From contig JANMQV010000173.1 of the NCBI GenBank assembly GCA_031370645.1, forward strand, positions 1 to 12,231: DNA of 12,231 nt. The letters are read 5' to 3'. Below are positions 4,624 to 11,856 of the stretch, piece after piece. The stretch's first letter is position 1, and the number at the start of each line of letters is the position of its first letter. The notes under the pieces were generated by a model, which had not been told where the DNA came from, made no database searches, and saw nothing but the letters and a program-made list of their open reading frames with translations. A program made the position numbers and the translations under genes. Source of the DNA: Candidatus Eiseniibacteriota bacterium. GTDB taxonomy: Bacteria > Eisenbacteria > RBG-16-71-46 > SZUA-252.

Positions 4624-4684
4624 CTACGACCGCCTAACCCGGATAACCACGCAGACGCTACGGCCGCCGAACTCCTACGGCCGC
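4624..4684. repeat. Imperfect 17-nt direct repeat between the convergent kinase and thiN ends
   Basis: CTACGACCGCCTAACCC 4624-4640 vs CTACGGCCGCCGAACTC 4658-4674 (14/17 identical), plus a partial copy CTACGGCCGC 4675-4684 that overlaps the thiN stop. Confidence 0.55.
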
Positions 4685-5307
4685 GTCACCACGCTGATCA
4701 GCAGTTCGCCTTTCGCGATCCGGATCCGCGCCGGGCGTCCGTTCGTGACGTTCGACATCGAATCCTGCCTTCCCAACGCCATCGTCACGCCGGTCAGCGG
4801 GAAGCGGAAATTCTCCGTCGTCACGCCCTCGGCCGGGGCGCCCACCGCGAAGAAGGAGACGGTGGTGCCGAGCGGGAGATCGAGTTCGACGTTCCCGGTC
4901 GCGAGCCAGGTGCGCCCATGATCGTCCCGGAGCACGAGCGTCGTTCGCCGCGCGAATTTGCGAAGAAGCGAAAGATGACCGACAAGATGGTCGAGCCGGC
5001 CCGCGCTCGCGGCGAGGAGCGTGATCTCTTCGTACGGCTCACGCGCGAGGGCGTACTCGATCGCTTTTTCGGTGTCGGTCCGCTCGAGGTCGGCGTCGTG
5101 GATCTGCGGCACGTCGGAGAAGTGCGCGAGCGTCTCGCGCTTCGCGCTGTCGAGGTCGCCGACGATCGCGTCCGGTAGGAGCCCGAGCGAGCGCGCCGTG
5201 TTGGCACCTCCGTCGGCGCAGACGAAGAGAGACGCCCCCTCGAGCGCGGCCTCGATTGTGGCCTGCTCCGGAGGGATTCCGTTCGCGAGGATGACGGCGC
5301 GGGACAT
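4675..5307 (-). CDS. thiN: Thiamine pyrophosphokinase (thiamine diphosphokinase), 210 aa
   Basis: MSRAVILANG start, CADGGAN, PDAIVGDLDS, ERTDTEKAI, GRLDH and C-terminal FRFPL..SMSN are all TPK/ThiN motifs. It lies next to a TPP-riboswitch operon. Start set at ATG 5307 rather than 5412. Confidence 0.93.
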   Translation of the reverse strand: MSRAVILANGIPPEQATIEAALEGASLFVCADGGANTARSLGLLPDAIVGDLDSAKRETLAHFSDVPQIHDADLERTDTEKAIEYALAREPYEEITLLAASAGRLDHLVGHLSLLRKFARRTTLVLRDDHGRTWLATGNVELDLPLGTTVSFFAVGAPAEGVTTENFRFPLTGVTMALGRQDSMSNVTNGRPARIRIAKGELLISVVTRP

Positions 5308-5387
5308 GATGACGGTCGGCTCCGACTGGTGTAGGGTGTGCCGCGGTCGGCAGTAGATGGGTCCAGCGTAGCACCGGCCGAGGAGCC

Positions 5388-5810
5388 ATGGCAAACCGCA
5401 GAGACGCCACAACCGTACTCATCGTAGCGCTACTCGCCCTTCTCGTGGGTGGCGTGGGGCTCTGGCTTGGTTTCCGGCCACCCGCGCCGGTCGAGCATGG
5501 GCCGCCCGTGCCGAAGCAGCCCGACCAGGGCCCCATCATTTACGAGATGACCTCCATCTTCAGCAAACCCGGTCGCGTTCAATTGGGATGGCGCGCGATC
5601 GAAGGGGCCTCGGGTTATCGCGTCGTCGTCATGACCGCGGCCGACGATTCACTCTTCACGAGCGATTCGCTCACGACGAACGCCTGGACGATTCCCCAGC
5701 CGCTTCGCGGTAAGTTGGCCCCACAGACGGGGTATCACTGGCGCTTGACCGTTCTTTTCCCCGATCGGCCCGCCGAGCAATCCGACGTCGCCTCCTTCGC
5801 CACCCAGTGA
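5388..5810 (+). CDS. Hypothetical single-pass membrane protein with a Pro-rich linker and an FN3-like beta-sandwich
   Basis: Strong RBS GAGGAG 5380-5385. N-terminal TM helix, then PPAPVEHGPPVPKQP, and FN3-like patterns VQLGW..IEGASGYRV and LAPQTGYHWRLTV. Confidence 0.8.
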   Translation: MANRRDATTVLIVALLALLVGGVGLWLGFRPPAPVEHGPPVPKQPDQGPIIYEMTSIFSKPGRVQLGWRAIEGASGYRVVVMTAADDSLFTSDSLTTNAWTIPQPLRGKLAPQTGYHWRLTVLFPDRPAEQSDVASFATQ

Positions 5811-5814
5811 CCGC

Positions 5815-5844
5815 TTGACAGTCGCGCCGCCACGGCGCGATCCT
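5815..5844 (+). promoter_or_regulatory. Sigma-70-type promoter of the TPP riboswitch operon
   Basis: Perfect TTGACA 5815-5820 and a weak -10 GATCCT 5839-5844 (18-nt spacer). The implied start site near 5850 falls just before the aptamer P1. Confidence 0.6.
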
Positions 5845-5852
5845 GAAGGCTC

Positions 5853-5939
5853 ACCGTTAGGGGTGGCCGGGGAAGAAATCCCGGCCTGAGATCACACCCT
5901 AAGAACCTGAACTGGGTCATTCCAGCGTAGGGAAACGGA
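5853..5939 (+). ncRNA. TPP (thiamine pyrophosphate, THI-box) riboswitch aptamer
   Basis: P1 CCGTT 5854-5858/AACGG 5934-5938; P2 AGGGGTG/CACCCT; P3 GGCCGGG 5865-5871/CCCGGCC 5880-5886; conserved TGAGA 5887-5891, GAACCTGA, P5 CTGG/CCAG and GCGTAGGGA. Located upstream of transporter genes and near thiN. Confidence 0.97.
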
Positions 5940-6015
5940 ACTGACGTCGACTCGCCGTCCGTGCCGCGACCTCTGCTGGTGGCGGCCGATTTGTTTTCGG
6001 CGGAAAGGCGTCACC
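5940..6015 (+). promoter_or_regulatory. Riboswitch expression platform (RBS-sequestering stem and terminator-like hairpin)
   Basis: TGACGTC 5942-5948/GGCGTCA 6007-6013 and TCGCCG 5952-5957/CGGCGG 5998-6003 enclose RBS GGAAAGG 6002-6008. Hairpin 5963-5986 is followed by CGATTTGTTTT. Confidence 0.65.
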
Positions 6016-8592
6016 GTGAAGTCTCTCATTCCCACTCTTCGTACCTGCCCCTTGCCCGCGCGACCGTCGCTCCTGCTCGCGTTCGCATTGCTCCTCGGAA
6101 TCGCGCTCGCACCGACCTCATCGCGTGCCGAGGCCGTCCGCGGCTCGCTCGCCGGCCGCGTTCTCGACGCTGCCACGCATGCTCCGATCGCTGATGTGCG
6201 CGTTCGACGGAGCGGCACCGGCACGCGGGAGACCGTCACCGATGCAGAGGGTCGCTTCCGCTTCGATTCTCCTCCAACCGGCGCTGTCACGCTCGAGATC
6301 GTCCGCCTGGGCTGCAAGCCGGTGACGCGGGAAGTCGCCGAGGGCGAATCGGAAGTCGAGGTGCTCCTCGAAGGGAAAACCCTAGCCGGCCCGTTGGTCG
6401 AAGTGACCACGACCCGGCCCAACGAGCGCGGCTCCGCCGTTGCCTTCACGCGCCTCGACGCCGCCCAGGTGAAGGCGAAGTACTGGGCGCAGGACGTGCC
6501 GATGCTTCTGGCCGAAACGCCCGGCGTCTATGCTTACTCCGACGCGGGGAACGGGATCGGTTACTCCTACGTGAAGGTCCGCGGTTTCAGCCAGCGGCGC
6601 GTGGCCGTGACGATCAATGGGATCCCGCTCAACGACCCGCAGTCGCACGAGGTCTATTGGGTCGATCATCCGGATCTTCTGACGAGCGCCAAGTCCCTTC
6701 AGGTGCAGCGCGGCGTCGGTAGTGCGCTCTATGGCGCGAGCGCGGTCGGGGGATCGATCAACCTCGAAACGACCGGCGGGCCGGGCGAACGCGCGCTCGT
6801 CGTAGAAACGGGCGGCGGCTCCTACGGCACGACTCGCTTCTCGCTGCACGGCGAAAGCGGGCTTCTCGACAATCGCTACGCGATAAGCGGACGTTACTCG
6901 CGCATCGTGACCGAAGGCTATCGCGAGCAGTCGTGGTCGAGCCTCTGGTCGTACGCGTTCTCGGCGTCCCGCTTCGACGAAAAGATGACGACGCGCGTGA
7001 ACCTCTACGGCGGCCCGGAAGAACTCCATCTCGCCTACTACGCCGTCGACCGACCCTACCTCGACGGCCGGATCACCGGCGACGCGAGCAAGGATCGGCG
7101 CTTCAATCCGCTCACCTGGCGGAACGAGACGGACAACTTCTTCGAGCCGCACTACGAACTCTTGAACGACTTCCGCCTGAGCGAGAAGGCGGCGCTTTCG
7201 TCCTCGATCTTCTATTTCCCCGGCCGCGGCTATTACGACGACCTCCCGTACGGACCGATCTCGCTCGCCAGCCGGCGGCTCCCGACCTTCTTCGTGAACG
7301 ACAAAACGCTCTACCCCGCGTCCTACTACGCCGACACCACGGGCGCGGGGCCGTATGAAGTCGTGGCGACCGACATGACGCAGCGCCTTTGGGCCAAGAA
7401 CAAGCACTACGGCTGGGTTCCGCGCGCGCGCGTCGCGCATGCGAAGGGAGAGATGACGGTCGGCGGCGAGTGGCGCGAGGCCGATGGACGGCGGTTCGGA
7501 GAATTGACCTGGGGCGCGGCCCTTCCGCCAGGCACCGAGCCGAATCACGTGATGTACGACTACCTGGGGCACGTGAACGTGCAATCGCTCTTCGCGCAGG
7601 AGGCGTACGACCTCCGCCCCGACGTGAAGGTGACGGGGAGTCTCCAGTGGCGCCGGACGCGCTACGCCATCGGACACGACCTTCTGAACGGCTACGACTT
7701 CAGGTTGAAGTACACGTCGCTCAACCCGCGGCTCGGCGTGAATTGGAACGTCAGCGACCCGTGGAACGTCTTCGCCTCCTACGCCCACGTGGAGTCGGAG
7801 CCGATTCTGAACGAGATCTATCGCGCCGACGACCCGACTGCGGCGCCGCTGTTCCGTATCGTCGATCCCGCGAATCACCGGTATGAAGATCCCCTCATCG
7901 ATCCGGAGAAACTGAGCGACTGGGAGGCGGGAATCGGCTACGCGAAGGGGAGCGCGCGATTTCGCGCCACCGGTTACTGGCTCGACTTCAAGGATGAGAT
8001 CGTGCCGAACGGCCAGATCGGCCCGCTCGGTGTTCCGATCACGGGGAATGCCGCGGCCTCGACGCATCAGGGAATTGAACTGGAAGGGGCGTGGAACCAT
8101 CGGTGCGGGCTCGAGGTTTCCGGCAACTTGACGCTCAGCAGGAATCGTTTCGACGACTATCGCGAATACGTCGATTCAACTACGTTCGCCGAGTACGACG
8201 GTAACACGATCGCGGGATTTCCCGCGCGTATGGCGAATCTGACCCTCGGGTATCACCGCGGCCCGGCGCGCGTCTCGCTTTCGCTCCGCGACACGGGTGT
8301 TCAGTATCTCGACAACTCCGAGGACAACCGGAAAGACCCGGCGCTCAAAACCGTCCCCGGCTACCAGCGGAAGCGGGTCGAAGCGAACACCGTCCTGAAC
8401 GGCGGATTCACGATGAATCTCGGCGGCGCGGTGGCGCGCGGGCTCGGCGCGCGCACGCTGGAACTCGACGTTCGCGGGTTCAATCTTACCGACCTCCGCT
8501 ACGAGACTGCCGGCTACGTCTACTACGAGGTGCCCTACTTCTACCCCGCGGCGGGCCGGAACGTCTTCGTGAGCCTGCGGGCGGAGTTCTAG
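6016..8592 (+). CDS. TonB-dependent outer-membrane receptor, probable thiamine receptor (Bacteroides Omr1-like plug), with an N-terminal carboxypeptidase-regulatory-like domain
   Basis: Signal peptide ending ..SSRA. GRVLDAATHAPIADVRV domain. Plug QDVPMLLAETPG..SDAGNGIGYSYVKVRGF..TINGIPLND..VYWVD..VQRGVGS..GGSINL. Barrel motifs NPRLG and NLTD..Y, and a C-terminal Phe (LRAEF). Directly downstream of the TPP riboswitch. Confidence 0.93.
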   Translation: MKSLIPTLRTCPLPARPSLLLAFALLLGIALAPTSSRAEAVRGSLAGRVLDAATHAPIADVRVRRSGTGTRETVTDAEGRFRFDSPPTGAVTLEIVRLGCKPVTREVAEGESEVEVLLEGKTLAGPLVEVTTTRPNERGSAVAFTRLDAAQVKAKYWAQDVPMLLAETPGVYAYSDAGNGIGYSYVKVRGFSQRRVAVTINGIPLNDPQSHEVYWVDHPDLLTSAKSLQVQRGVGSALYGASAVGGSINLETTGGPGERALVVETGGGSYGTTRFSLHGESGLLDNRYAISGRYSRIVTEGYREQSWSSLWSYAFSASRFDEKMTTRVNLYGGPEELHLAYYAVDRPYLDGRITGDASKDRRFNPLTWRNETDNFFEPHYELLNDFRLSEKAALSSSIFYFPGRGYYDDLPYGPISLASRRLPTFFVNDKTLYPASYYADTTGAGPYEVVATDMTQRLWAKNKHYGWVPRARVAHAKGEMTVGGEWREADGRRFGELTWGAALPPGTEPNHVMYDYLGHVNVQSLFAQEAYDLRPDVKVTGSLQWRRTRYAIGHDLLNGYDFRLKYTSLNPRLGVNWNVSDPWNVFASYAHVESEPILNEIYRADDPTAAPLFRIVDPANHRYEDPLIDPEKLSDWEAGIGYAKGSARFRATGYWLDFKDEIVPNGQIGPLGVPITGNAAASTHQGIELEGAWNHRCGLEVSGNLTLSRNRFDDYREYVDSTTFAEYDGNTIAGFPARMANLTLGYHRGPARVSLSLRDTGVQYLDNSEDNRKDPALKTVPGYQRKRVEANTVLNGGFTMNLGGAVARGLGARTLELDVRGFNLTDLRYETAGYVYYEVPYFYPAAGRNVFVSLRAEF

Positions 8593-8595
8593 GCG

Positions 8596-10014
8596 TTGAC
8601 GGGCGCGCGGCTCACGCCCATCGACCTCGCGCTCGTCGCGGCGTACGCCCTATTTCTCCTGTATCTCGGGATTCGGCTATCGCACGTCGCGAAGGGAAGC
8701 ACGGCCGATTATCTCGTCATGGGGAGACGCCTCTCGCTCCCCTCGTTCGTGGCGACGCTCGTCGCCACGTGGTACGGCGGTGTGCTCGGCGTAGGAGAGT
8801 TCTCGTTCCGTTACGGTATCTCGAACTGGATCGTCTTCGGCGTGCCGTACTACATCGGCGCGCTCCTCTTCGCGTTCTTCCTCGCGCGTCGCGCTCATCG
8901 GACGAAGTTCTACACCGTCCCCGATCTTCTCCATCACGCCTACGGTCGCCCGGCGGGGTTGACGGGCGCGATCGCCGTTCAGCTCTTCAACTCGCCCGCT
9001 CCGTATGTGCTGATGATGGGGATCCTGCTTCAAATGCTGTTCGGGTGGGAGTTCCTACCCGCGCTCATCGTCGGCACCTTTTTCTCGACGATCTACTCGC
9101 TGCGAGGCGGGCTCCGCTCGGTCGTTGCCGCGGATCGTCTTCAGTTCGTGCTCATGTTCGCGGGATTCATGATCGCGCTCCCGTTCCTCGCGATGAAGCA
9201 CGGCGGACTGCCGTTCCTCCACGCGAACCTTCCCGCCACGCACTTCGTTTGGCATGGCGGGAATAATCTTCAGTACATCTTCGTCTGGTACCTGATTGCG
9301 CTCCAGACGCTGGTGGAGCCGACGTTCTATCAGCGCGCGTTCGCCGCGAAGGACGAGGCTACCGCGCAACGCGGAGTGTTGATCTCCATCGGCTTCTGGA
9401 TTCTCTTCGACTTCCTCACGACCTTCACCGGCCTCTACGCTCGGGCGCTGATGCCCGATCTTGCCGATCCGGTGTCCGCTTATCCCCGTCTCGCGGCCGA
9501 ATTCCTCCCGCCCGTCATGCGCGGGCTTTTCTTTCTTGGACTCCTCGCGACCGTGATGTCGACCGTGGACGGCTACACGTTCATCGGCGGCGTAAATTTC
9601 GGCCGCGACTTGATCTGGCGATGGCGGCGCGAACCAGACGAGGCGAACGTAAATCGCTACGCTCAATATGGATTCGTGCTGACCGCGCTCCTCGCGTTCG
9701 GACTCGCGCTCTGGTTTCGAAGCGCGGTCGATCTCTGGCATCACGTCGGATCGATCGGGGTTCCGGCGCTCCTCTTGCCAATGCTCCTTGTTCATTCGCC
9801 ACGCTGGCGAGTCTCGTCGTGGTGGGCGACCGCGTCGATGCTTGCCGGGGGCGGTGCCGCGCTGGCGTGGATCATCCCGTCGCTCGTGGTGAAGGACGGC
9901 CCCTATCCGCTCGGTCTCGAACCGATCTACGCGGGGCTCGTGGCCAGCGCGGCGACGTGGGGGTTGGGGCTACTAGCGGCGAAAAAAGCAGGAACCAAGA
10001 AGCCGGGCCGGTGA
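8596..10014 (+). CDS. Sodium:solute symporter (SSS/SLC5 family), probable thiamine or thiamine-precursor inner-membrane importer
   Basis: About 13 TM helices. SSS motifs DYLVMGRRL, ATWYGG, YTVPDLL..YG, YSLRGGLRSVVAADRLQ, YQRAFAAKD, LLATVMSTVDG. Starts 3 nt after the TBDR stop, with GGAG 8583-8586 and a TTG start. Confidence 0.92.
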   Translation: MTGARLTPIDLALVAAYALFLLYLGIRLSHVAKGSTADYLVMGRRLSLPSFVATLVATWYGGVLGVGEFSFRYGISNWIVFGVPYYIGALLFAFFLARRAHRTKFYTVPDLLHHAYGRPAGLTGAIAVQLFNSPAPYVLMMGILLQMLFGWEFLPALIVGTFFSTIYSLRGGLRSVVAADRLQFVLMFAGFMIALPFLAMKHGGLPFLHANLPATHFVWHGGNNLQYIFVWYLIALQTLVEPTFYQRAFAAKDEATAQRGVLISIGFWILFDFLTTFTGLYARALMPDLADPVSAYPRLAAEFLPPVMRGLFFLGLLATVMSTVDGYTFIGGVNFGRDLIWRWRREPDEANVNRYAQYGFVLTALLAFGLALWFRSAVDLWHHVGSIGVPALLLPMLLVHSPRWRVSSWWATASMLAGGGAALAWIIPSLVVKDGPYPLGLEPIYAGLVASAATWGLGLLAAKKAGTKKPGR

Positions 10015-10020
10015 TCTAAG

Positions 10021-10169
10021 TAGGCAGAGAGCGGGTACCTAAGCACCCGCTTCCCAATCGGTTAGCCCGGCCAGCCTCCGGCCGGGCGGCCGTTGGGGGA
10101 CGCAGGCCCCACGAGACCGGGTCGACGTCCCGGAACCGATCGATCCACGGACCCGCAAGCCCGTGGGTA
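10021..10169. ncRNA. Candidate unassigned structured RNA element
   Basis: At least five helices within ~150 nt (see findings). I could not match it to a family I recognise. Confidence 0.55.
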
Positions 10170-10206
10170 CTCCCCGTCAGCGGTGTCTGGCGGGGAGATC
10201 CTTTTT
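10170..10206 (+). terminator. Intrinsic terminator
   Basis: CTCCCCGTCAG 10170-10180/CTGGCGGGGAG 10187-10197 (11 bp, one G-U on the + strand), followed by ATCCTTTTT. Confidence 0.75.
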
Positions 10207-10272: not shown

Positions 10273-11856
10273 GTGATCGATCCCCCCTCGAAACTCCCGT
10301 GGCGCGCGGCGATTCTCTGGGCGTTGTTGGCGCTTTCGCTCGCCGCGCTCCACGCCGCCGTGACCGTGAAGCAGATCTCGCCCTCGAGCGACCTCTGGGA
10401 CTATTCGCAGCAGGCGCGGCAGATCGCGCGGGGCGAGGGGTTCACTTCGCTCTACACGTATCCGACCCTGCTCGGTGAAGACGAATCGCCGCCCTATCCG
10501 GTGCGGTGGAGAATGCCGCTTTTCTCGTGGCGCGGGGCGCTGATGCTGCAGAGCGGCGCGTCGCTGCCCGAGGGGTTCTTCATTCTCGCGGCGATCGGGC
10601 AGGCGCTGCTCGTGGGGCTCGTGTTTCTTCTCGGGGCACACTTCCATTCGCCGCGCGCGGGAGCCGTCGCCGCGGCAGCTGCGGCTGCCTGCCCGCTCTT
10701 GCTCGACTCGTTTAATCCGGGGCTCAGCCAGGTGCCGGTCGCGGCGTTCGGACTCGTTGTTTGGTTGCTATTGCTACGAGGTAAAGGCGTCGCGACGGCG
10801 ATCGTGGCCGCGATGATCGCCGCCGCCATCTGGTACGCGCGTGCCGAGTCGATGCTCTTCGCCCCCCTCTGGATCGTCGCCGCGTGGCTCGGTGCGAGTC
10901 AGGGCGCGTTTCTTGGCGAAACGCGAAAGAACCCCCCGGCCCGCCCGTTGTTGCGTTCTCTCACCTTCACGCTCGTGTTCATCCTGCTCTGCGCGCCATG
11001 GCCGTTTCTCATCCGCGCCATGAGCGGCGATGCCTCGCCGATCCAGGGCAATCCGATGCTTCTCTACACGCCTCAATTTCCCGGGTACTCGTCATCGCGA
11101 ACCTATCTCGAGGCAATGCCCGGTTACGCCGCGTATGTATTTCACCATCCCGGCACGTTCGCGCTTCGGTGGGTGAAAGATGTGATCGGGTATCTCGTCG
11201 ATTTCGGCGCCGGGTTGGGTCCCATCGCGATTGGGCTCGCGATGGCGGGGCTCTTGATTCGCGAGGTGCAGGGCCGCTATCGCGAAGTGGGACGGGTGTG
11301 GATCTTTCTACTCGCGATCGTGCTTCAGATCGCGGCATTCGCCGCACTGCAGCGGAGCCCGAGGTTCTTGGTTCCGGTCGTGCCGCTGGCCTGTGTGGTG
11401 CTTGGCATCGCGGCCGCGCCGGCGCTCGACCGATTCTCCGGTAAGCGGATGGTGATCTTGCTCTTTGTTCTCTTGATCGGCGAGCGAGCCGCGACCGTCG
11501 GATTCGAGACCCGGGCCGCCCTGCGCCGCTATCCACCGTTGCCGACTTCGTTGGCAAGCGCGCTCCGAGTGAGGGCTTCGAATTGGCCGCCCGATCAATT
11601 GCTGCTGACCGACGTCCCCGATTGGACCGTCTGGCACCTCGATCGCCCCGCGCTCCTTCTGCCGACTTCGCGCTCGATGGCAGCGGTGATGAAGGATCAC
11701 CCCGTCGCGGCCATATTTCTCTCGCCCGACGCGCGCGCGCGAAACGTCGCGGATGGCGATTCGTTGTGGATCGAAGTATGGGACCGCGTGGAGCCGCTGG
11801 CGGGATTCCGGGGTCCGATTCCGCTGCCAGGCGGGGCGCGGCTCTACGAGCGATAG
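10273..11856 (+). CDS. GT-C fold polytopic membrane glycosyltransferase (ArnT/PMT-like, lipid-linked sugar donor)
   Basis: After TM1 comes SSDLWDYSQQARQIARGEG (DxxxY..A pattern), then RMPLF, ARAE and PRFLVPVVP (RY/FxxP), many TM helices and a soluble C-terminal domain. The computed start at 10093 runs across the terminator, so GTG 10273 is preferred. Confidence 0.8.
   Translation: MIDPPSKLPWRAAILWALLALSLAALHAAVTVKQISPSSDLWDYSQQARQIARGEGFTSLYTYPTLLGEDESPPYPVRWRMPLFSWRGALMLQSGASLPEGFFILAAIGQALLVGLVFLLGAHFHSPRAGAVAAAAAAACPLLLDSFNPGLSQVPVAAFGLVVWLLLLRGKGVATAIVAAMIAAAIWYARAESMLFAPLWIVAAWLGASQGAFLGETRKNPPARPLLRSLTFTLVFILLCAPWPFLIRAMSGDASPIQGNPMLLYTPQFPGYSSSRTYLEAMPGYAAYVFHHPGTFALRWVKDVIGYLVDFGAGLGPIAIGLAMAGLLIREVQGRYREVGRVWIFLLAIVLQIAAFAALQRSPRFLVPVVPLACVVLGIAAAPALDRFSGKRMVILLFVLLIGERAATVGFETRAALRRYPPLPTSLASALRVRASNWPPDQLLLTDVPDWTVWHLDRPALLLPTSRSMAAVMKDHPVAAIFLSPDARARNVADGDSLWIEVWDRVEPLAGFRGPIPLPGGARLYER

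Follow-up and report, generated by a model that had tools for sequence, protein, structure and literature searches.

MicL of Escherichia coli is a sigma-E-dependent small RNA (sRNA) that is embedded in a 3' untranslated region (3'-UTR); processing reportedly yields a form of 80 nt, and lpp is targeted by way of a linear seed (PMC4102768). Promoters used by E. coli sigma-E are described as having a -35 element GGAACTTTT, a -10 element (T/C)GGTCAAAA, a spacer of 15-19 nt (16 nt preferred), a discriminator of 5 or 6 nt, a purine start and an A/T-rich upstream region (PMC1312014). The 6C RNA of Mycobacterium is a C-rich-loop sRNA of high-GC/Gram-positive bacteria (PMC6486639). No paper on small RNAs of Candidatus Eisenbacteria was found in a literature search, and only one on CsrA turned up. 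Here we describe an RNA element of this phylum in a 12,231-nt stretch of DNA (hereafter the window; contig JANMQV010000173.1 of genome assembly GCA_031370645.1), in which it lies between a transporter gene on its 5' side and a GT-C-like membrane protein gene on its 3' side. The element (10026-10206, + strand) is a conserved, single-copy RNA locus with a covarying structure. We read it, with about an even chance of being right, as a stand-alone RNA gene of ~180 nt that would be driven by an extracytoplasmic function (ECF)-type promoter and would act in trans as a stress regulator through a C-rich loop; promoter activity, start site, seed, targets and action in trans are predicted parts of this reading.

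The locus resembles that of MicL. In both, a sigma-E-type promoter lies within the upstream coding sequence (CDS) or at its end, and the RNA stops at the intrinsic terminator of that upstream gene; both are, here putatively, stand-alone regulators of an envelope-stress regulon with more than one sRNA, and in the present genome two RNAs share the promoter type. A 3'-UTR-embedded layout, in which the sRNA promoter lies in or overlaps the upstream CDS and one terminator serves both, is found in g1, the genus of the window, and in g3 (15/25 copies). The two-block sigma-E/ECF promoter of the MicA, RybB and MicL class is recognizable by sequence in 25/25 copies. The two RNAs differ in that they share no sequence or Rfam similarity, come from different phyla and are, respectively, dependent on sigma-E and predicted to depend on such a factor; no Hfq gene was found here, and the linear seed of MicL contrasts with a candidate apical C-rich loop. 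No homology to the enterobacterial sRNA families of the MicA, RybB and MicL class was detected with Rfam (E <= 10 for the copy in the window, E <= 1 for four homologues). The likeness to 6C lies in a conserved C-rich apical loop on a GC-rich stem, a high G+C genome and a plausible independence of chaperones; the present RNA differs in having one C-rich loop instead of two, in its much larger size and multi-domain architecture and in the lack of an Rfam 6C match.

The RNA is single-copy in its own genome (3.0 Mb, 247 contigs, 95% complete), where a search returned one full match and 15 others of only 14-30 nt (E 0.28-6.4). It is thus not a dispersed repeat of the repetitive extragenic palindrome or miniature inverted-repeat transposable element (REP/MITE) type, which the first-pass annotation had named as a possible refutation. 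With BLAST, relatives were detected in 5/7 genomes of the same genus, and two further genera gave partial matches. A first covariance model then gave one match per genome in 25/41 genomes of one Candidatus Eisenbacteria family, with six of eight genomes in the genus of the window (g1, its own genome counted), 9/10 in g3, 10/10 in g4 and 0/13 in g2; a second model built on the full structure recovered the same 25 genomes. When this full-structure model was run on 110 genomes from 17 other families of the class, only eight matches of 20.6-26.7 bits appeared, which are taken as noise. The genomes other than that of the window are incomplete metagenome-assembled genomes (MAGs) and absences in them are provisional; the two g1 genomes without the RNA also have no transporter gene (E <= 1e-30), and the RNA locus may be unassembled in them. 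An exact-pattern scan of all species genomes yielded 13 stretches and no new copies: eight come from Eisenbacteria-type MAGs, of which one carries the title Acidobacteriota, and the remaining five match by chance and are unrelated. A two-mismatch pattern scan of a phylum sample (206 genomes) was too loose, with dozens of matches in every genome.

Searches for known families leave the RNA unassigned. The Rfam scan of the element matched no family at gathering thresholds or up to E = 10, and the sub-threshold noise consisted of Ysr201 (14 bits), BASRCI414 (10 bits) and Six3os1_2 (13 bits); four homologous loci (E <= 1) gave only a sub-threshold Cyano-2 match (22 bits, threshold 40). Neither a tRNA nor a tmRNA gene was called at the element. 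A canonical 6S RNA (88.8 bits) lies on another contig of the same genome, as do the signal recognition particle (SRP) RNA, RNase P RNA and tmRNA, and the element is therefore not a divergent version of any of these. A small protein gene is also excluded, since copies differ in length by numbers not divisible by three and the stems change in a compensatory way. The RNA is hence uncatalogued and lineage-restricted to one Candidatus Eisenbacteria family, and the earlier proposal of a new noncoding RNA is borne out by the empty Rfam result together with conservation and covariation.

Dense structure, also proposed from the sequence at first sight, is confirmed: on either strand, a 201-nt stretch reaches a lower folding energy than each of 200 dinucleotide shuffles (z -3.36 for +, -3.57 for -). 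The 5'-most hairpin, P1 (10030-10051, +), is formed by AGCGGGT 10030-36 and ACCCGCT 10045-51 around a loop with a conserved UAA; it is 92% paired and two of five pairs are compensatory (for example AU:9 GC:9 CG:4 at one pair). It is followed by a long rod hairpin (10053-10097, +), which is the minimum free energy (MFE) fold in all nine sequences folded and consists of a lower stem CCCAA/TTGGG, a middle stem CGGTT/GGCCG and an upper stem GCCCGGCC 10065-72/GGCCGGGC 10080-87. Compensatory pairs make up 4/4 of the lower and 4/5 of the upper stem, and in two same-genus copies G-to-A changes opposite U keep the middle stem paired. The apical loop of the rod is AGCCUCC, in which CCUCC (10075-10079) is invariant. 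An extra hairpin (10097-10131, +) belongs to the MFE fold of the window and is confined to g1, with gaps in the g3 and g4 rows. The linker GGAACCGA (10132-10139, +) is predicted to be single-stranded and contains GAACCGA in 25/25 copies. Hairpin P4 (10145-10166, +), formed by CCACGG 10145-50 and CCGTGG 10161-66, has the loop ACCCGCAAGC with a C-G pair closing a GCAA tetraloop; it is 95.3% paired, 3/6 pairs are compensatory (GC:20 AU:5 and others) and the inner C-G pair is invariant in 25/25. The RNA ends in an intrinsic terminator (10170-10206, +) with an 11-bp stem (10170-10197), a 6-nt loop and a T-run, as originally noted; its stem is 98.1% paired with compensatory changes at 6/11 pairs, and the T-run is present in all 24 full-length copies.

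Reading all 25 copies and folding nine of them singly gave a common plan of junction, linker, P4, variable spacer and terminator. The three-way junction is closed by 5' (A)GAGAG with CUCUC(U) ~100 nt downstream (3/7 pairs compensatory), and its arms are P1 and the rod. Loops differ in detail between genera, the P1 loop being GUAA in g3 and the rod loop CACCUCCU in g4. Four g3 genomes carry an insertion of ~35 nt after GGAACCGA that forms a second P4-like hairpin (UCCGCGG…CCGCGGA), suggestive of a duplicated P4 module.

Covariation was counted on two alignments because an alignment fitted to a covariance model is biased to its own structure. With all 25 copies aligned to the model, pairing holds in 88.1% of cells and 26/45 pairs are compensatory, with a covariation score of 0.255 against at most 0.072 for slid controls and none of 500 shuffles reaching it; the plain MAFFT alignment of 20 copies gave 83.9% paired, 17/47 pairs compensatory and a score of 0.187 against at most 0.069 (again 0/500 shuffles). 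One of five measures on the MAFFT alignment, further standard pair types, was reached by 60/500 shuffles. RNAalifold on plain MAFFT alignments returned partly wrong helices from one-column shifts. The RNA is read from the + strand because many positions switch between G-U and G-C or A-U, and on the opposite strand these conserved G-U pairs would turn into A-C mismatches; promoter and terminator have the same orientation, which supports the strand that was initially proposed with reserve. Taken together, these data support the rod, three-way junction, P4 and terminator on the + strand as the conserved fold.

The first-pass annotation had proposed two mutually exclusive folds: a four-way cloverleaf (fold A) and the rod (fold B). 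All of the helices that it listed exist in the sequence at the coordinates given, among them ATCGGTT 10057-63/AACCGAT 10134-40 and CCGGG 10117-21/CCCGG 10129-33 of fold A, CGTTGGGG 10091-98/CCCCACG 10107-13 (with one bulge) and a second ACCCGC at 10151-56, but the two folds did not fare alike. Fold B is the MFE fold of the + strand and covaries. Fold A is not the conserved fold: pairing in its closing helix (75.3%) equals the shuffle mean (75.3%), and 328/500 shuffles are as high. Its second arm is moreover in competition with the lower rod stem, which covaries. A local remnant of fold A could nevertheless form, since 19-25 of 25 copies would allow a 4-bp helix between AACC of the linker and GGUU of the rod, although both segments are invariant and offer no variation by which such an alternative pairing could be judged.

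A two-block element precedes all 25 copies of the RNA: GGAAC (GAAAC in g4), 19 nt of variable spacer sequence and an invariant TCTAA, often with an A-rich stretch before GGAAC. In the window, on the + strand, an A-run resembling an UP element (9982-9987, A-rich also in g1 and g4 copies) lies at the 3' end of the transporter CDS just 5' of a -35-like GGAACC (9991-9996), which is also inside this CDS, and the -10-like (GA)TCTAA (10013-10019) overlaps the transporter stop codon TGA (10012-10014), which its TCTAA (10015-19) abuts. The element overlaps the end of the transporter CDS in g1 and g3 (15/25 copies), where the position of the stop codon relative to it differs between the two genera, and is intergenic in g4. 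It looks like a promoter because the two blocks keep a fixed distance while the spacer is free and the coding context changes. GGAAC matches the start of the sigma-E -35 element GGAACTTTT, and the two-block match is one of sequence to the E. coli consensus cited above. Standard sigma-70-like promoters also exist in the lineage (TTGACA-N17-TAGCCT before an RpoE-like sigma gene and TTGATT-N17-TAAGAT before RNase P RNA), so that GGAAC…TCTAA would represent a special class and not the housekeeping type. The RNA is most likely transcribed from its own sigma-E-like ECF promoter, comprising the A-rich stretch, GGAAC, 19 nt and TCTAA. A start at 10025-10026 (+) is predicted from a purine start and the discriminator length of sigma-E promoters, and falls on the base with which the junction helix begins in g3 and g4.

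The same motif led to a second unannotated RNA of ~170 nt with its own terminator (contig C129, ~946-1150, +), found in a genome scan with a weight matrix in which both RNAs were among the three best sites. Six sites score at least 16 and, apart from the two RNAs, appear chance-like; the one inspected closely, on a different contig, is followed by no plausible gene. The promoter of the second RNA is a perfect GGAACTT-N16-TCTAA (TCTAA 18 nt after GGAAC) in 28/28 copies with upstream sequence available. BLAST finds this RNA in 29/41 family genomes and in all four genera including g2, and Rfam gave no match at E <= 1. It has a conserved CCGGCGUUCGCCGG hairpin and a 9-bp closing helix GAAGUUCCC/GGGAACUUC that is the same in 27/28 rows while inner helices vary. 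An invariant GGAAC is thus present in the bodies of both RNAs, in the linker GGAACCGA here and in the GAAGUUCCC/GGGAACUUC helix of the second RNA.

Eleven ECF-type sigma genes are encoded in the genome. The best candidate for the cognate sigma of both RNAs is an RpoE-like ECF factor (contig C157, 39742-40275, +) that occurs in 40/41 family genomes with 80-94% identity; two conserved promoter-like elements stand upstream of its gene, TTGACA-N17-TAGCCT and, downstream of this, GGAAC/CGAAC-N19-20-(G)C(G/A)TC. A GAACTC…CTCTAA sequence 235 nt before an ECF sigma gene on a different contig from the RNA was considered as an autoregulatory site and rejected as chance; it lies in a coding region and is not conserved in 29 orthologous loci. 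An ECF sigma gene on contig C234 (30480-31320) has a conserved TGGAATA-N16-GCGTAGTA directly before its start codon, which suggests a leaderless autoregulated promoter, and in most genomes it is preceded by a small open reading frame (ORF) that has a GGAGG ribosome-binding site and codes for a ~40-residue hydrophobic peptide.

In the mechanism that we favour, a sigma-E-like ECF sigma would drive the RNA from GGAAC-N19-TCTAA, which in the window overlaps the last transporter codons, and transcription would stop at the strong intrinsic terminator of the RNA. The RNA would be induced by stress and regulate in trans: independently of Hfq, its C-rich, anti-Shine-Dalgarno-like loop CCUCC would pair with the GGAGG of ribosome-binding sites in the mRNAs that it targets. 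CCUCC stays invariant while the stem that presents it is replaced (CCCGG/CCGGG to CCCAG/CUGGG to GCUC..UUG/CAA..GAGC), GGAGG ribosome-binding sites are in use in this lineage, and a search of the 95%-complete genome returned no Hfq (Pfam PF17209). Because CCUCC is complementary to GGAGG and no Hfq was found, chaperone-independent pairing of the kind described for C-rich-loop sRNAs such as 6C (PMC6486639) is proposed, and the C-rich loop probably pairs with Shine-Dalgarno regions. Duplex energies calculated with the whole RNA are dominated by G+C content and are uninformative for targets.

Several observations weigh against this reading. Nearly all loops and linkers are conserved (the P1 UAA, CCUCC, GGAACCGA, CCGCAAGA and the terminator loop), and conservation of all unpaired segments is more typical of RNAs that bind proteins or ligands than of base-pairing sRNAs. 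CCUCC would fit most ribosome-binding sites, which leaves specificity unexplained, and no target was found, the complementary stretches in the genome all lying inside ORFs. Apart from the two RNAs and a looser version at one sigma gene, the genome has no clear sites of the motif, and a regulon that small would be unusual for an ECF sigma. The element at the RpoE-like sigma gene itself differs at the -10 and in spacing. The window copy has no junction-closing helix of the kind kept in g3 and g4 copies, although two same-genus copies retain it. The GT-C-like gene, finally, still follows the RNA co-oriented in 18/23 loci, and some functional link to it is possible.

The finding matters beyond the single locus. 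It adds a well-bounded RNA gene with a covarying structure and a recognizable promoter class in an uncultured soil and sediment phylum, and this promoter class also led to a second RNA and a candidate cognate sigma. If the promoter is a true one, an envelope-stress sigma would use sRNAs far from Proteobacteria too, apparently without Hfq. For the annotation of MAGs and the interpretation of soil and sediment metatranscriptomes, the promoter motif and the two covariance models are ready to use.

The neighbouring genes on the 5' side have a thiamine-related layout (4675-10014), in which a thiamine pyrophosphokinase gene (4675-5412, -), a thiamine pyrophosphate (TPP) riboswitch (5849-5950, +; Rfam match of 68.5 bits), a TonB-dependent receptor gene with a CarboxypepD_reg domain (6016-8592, +) and a gene for an SSF-family (sodium:solute symporter) transporter (8596-10014, +; Pfam SSF 5.2e-27) stand together. 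The riboswitch heads the receptor and transporter operon upstream of the RNA, as had been recognized initially, and receptor and transporter probably constitute an uptake operon for thiamine or a precursor. On the 3' side, the GT-C-like membrane protein gene (hereafter GT gene; +), which has a weak Pfam Glyco_transf_22 match, begins at a GTG codon at 10273. A -10-like TATTCT (10261-66, +) 6 nt before this GTG belongs to the GT gene and is not part of the RNA. A TA(T/C)NCT hexamer is found 6-10 nt 5' of the GT start codon, past the RNA terminator, in all 18 loci with GT downstream, and the same hexamer precedes GT in two g2 loci without the RNA. Judging from this hexamer, the GT gene appears to be a separate transcription unit whose mRNA would have a very short leader or none. 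On a different contig of the genome, TATTCT stands 7 nt before the first tRNA of a tRNA cluster. The long ORF from 10093 extends the GT gene upstream but is unsupported.

The neighbourhood suggests explanations in which the RNA belongs to one of the adjacent genes, and these were weighed against independent transcription. A 3'-UTR-derived sRNA, made by read-through and processing from the TPP-riboswitch-controlled transporter operon and hence thiamine-controlled, had been proposed at first reading and seems to us unlikely. It draws on the g1 and g3 loci (15/25 copies), where the transporter gene ends inside the promoter element with no terminator before the RNA, so that the RNA terminator, the only one behind the transporter gene, is also that of an operon headed by a TPP riboswitch. 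That part of the proposal stands. Its other half is unlikely, because eight of ten g4 loci have no transporter gene in the examined flank (a different gene ends there in the four that were read), yet retain the RNA and an intact GGAAAC…TCTAA. The two-block motif with its variable spacer is moreover conserved beyond coding need, and the stop codon falls at different positions in g1 and g3. In g1 and g3, TPP-controlled read-through would have to enter the RNA and end at its terminator, and could thereby add a second input. Somewhat less probable still is a cis-acting leader of the GT gene (riboswitch, attenuator or thermosensor, perhaps working by a switch between folds A and B), another early suggestion that did not survive comparison of loci. 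GT is co-oriented downstream in 18/23 loci with enough flank, and the invariant GGUU of the rod and AACC of the linker could form an alternative helix; but five loci, all in g3, keep the RNA without GT downstream (four with a convergent ORF, one with no GT in the 342 nt examined), and of three g2 genomes read, two have GT directly behind the transporter (within about 50 nt) with no RNA between, while in the third the transporter is followed by a different gene. The RNA is not a leader of GT because GT has its own -10-like element in 18/18 loci and is missing downstream in five. The closing helix of fold A shows no covariation; the one alternative pairing present, the invariant 4-bp GGUU/AACC, shows none either, and no conserved anti-terminator pairing beyond it was found in the copies examined. 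The RNA is neither a leader of the GT gene nor dependent on the transporter gene.

Explanations that keep the RNA independent and give it another mode of action are harder to set aside. The most serious, though still tentative and clearly behind pairing with mRNAs, is that the RNA binds a protein or small ligand, as a decoy of an ECF holoenzyme, as a CsrA sponge that takes up one dimer, or as a mimic of the 3' end of 16S rRNA. Unpaired segments that are nearly all invariant over three genera while stems covary are in keeping with it, as are the GNRA-type loops (GUAA in P1 of g3, GCAA in P4) and the invariant GGAAC in both RNAs of this promoter type, whereas no gene for a partner protein travels with the RNA and both flanks vary. 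For the CsrA sponge, CsrA is encoded in the genome and GGA occurs in the linker and, in most copies, the terminator loop; however, the terminator loop of the window copy has no GGA and 4/6 g1 copies have a CGAACC or UGAACC linker, so that two GGA sites are not conserved. The g4 rod loop CACCUCCU, which has the sequence of the usual 16S 3' tail, is counted for the 16S mimic. In its most specific and quite improbable form, the decoy idea would have both GGAAC…TCTAA-driven RNAs act on the ECF sigma holoenzyme itself, as decoys or in feedback regulation and not as base-pairing sRNAs, in a manner like that of 6S but for an alternative sigma. The RNA body would then offer the -35 word GGAAC, and the linker would switch between a single-stranded state and pairing with the GGUU of the rod, which would be the switch underlying the mutually exclusive folds A and B; in the second RNA, GGAAC lies inside the invariant 9-bp helix. 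An architecture unlike that of 6S and the canonical 6S RNA elsewhere in the genome speak against a 6S-like decoy. A divergent 6S RNA proper, which had also been suggested, a dispersed repeat or a chance GC-rich fold may be practically dismissed. The element shares length (~185 nt), single copy and high structure with 6S (RF00013), and low folding energy is common in DNA of ~68% G+C; however, it does not match that family, no rod with a central bubble results from pairing of its two ends, its consensus is a junction plus terminator, and the 88.8-bit 6S match is on a different contig. Repeats are contradicted by a single copy here and one per genome in relatives, and chance by covariation far above shuffled and slid controls. 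Stand-alone transcription with regulation through the C-rich loop is therefore retained as our preferred reading.

A minor observation concerns the transporter gene. Its CDS holds GAACCGATCTA at 9919-9929, ~215 nt 5' of the invariant GAACCGATCGA of the RNA (10133-10143). In the CDS this sequence encodes a conserved LEPIY motif, and the recurrence is either chance or a trace of the origin of the RNA.

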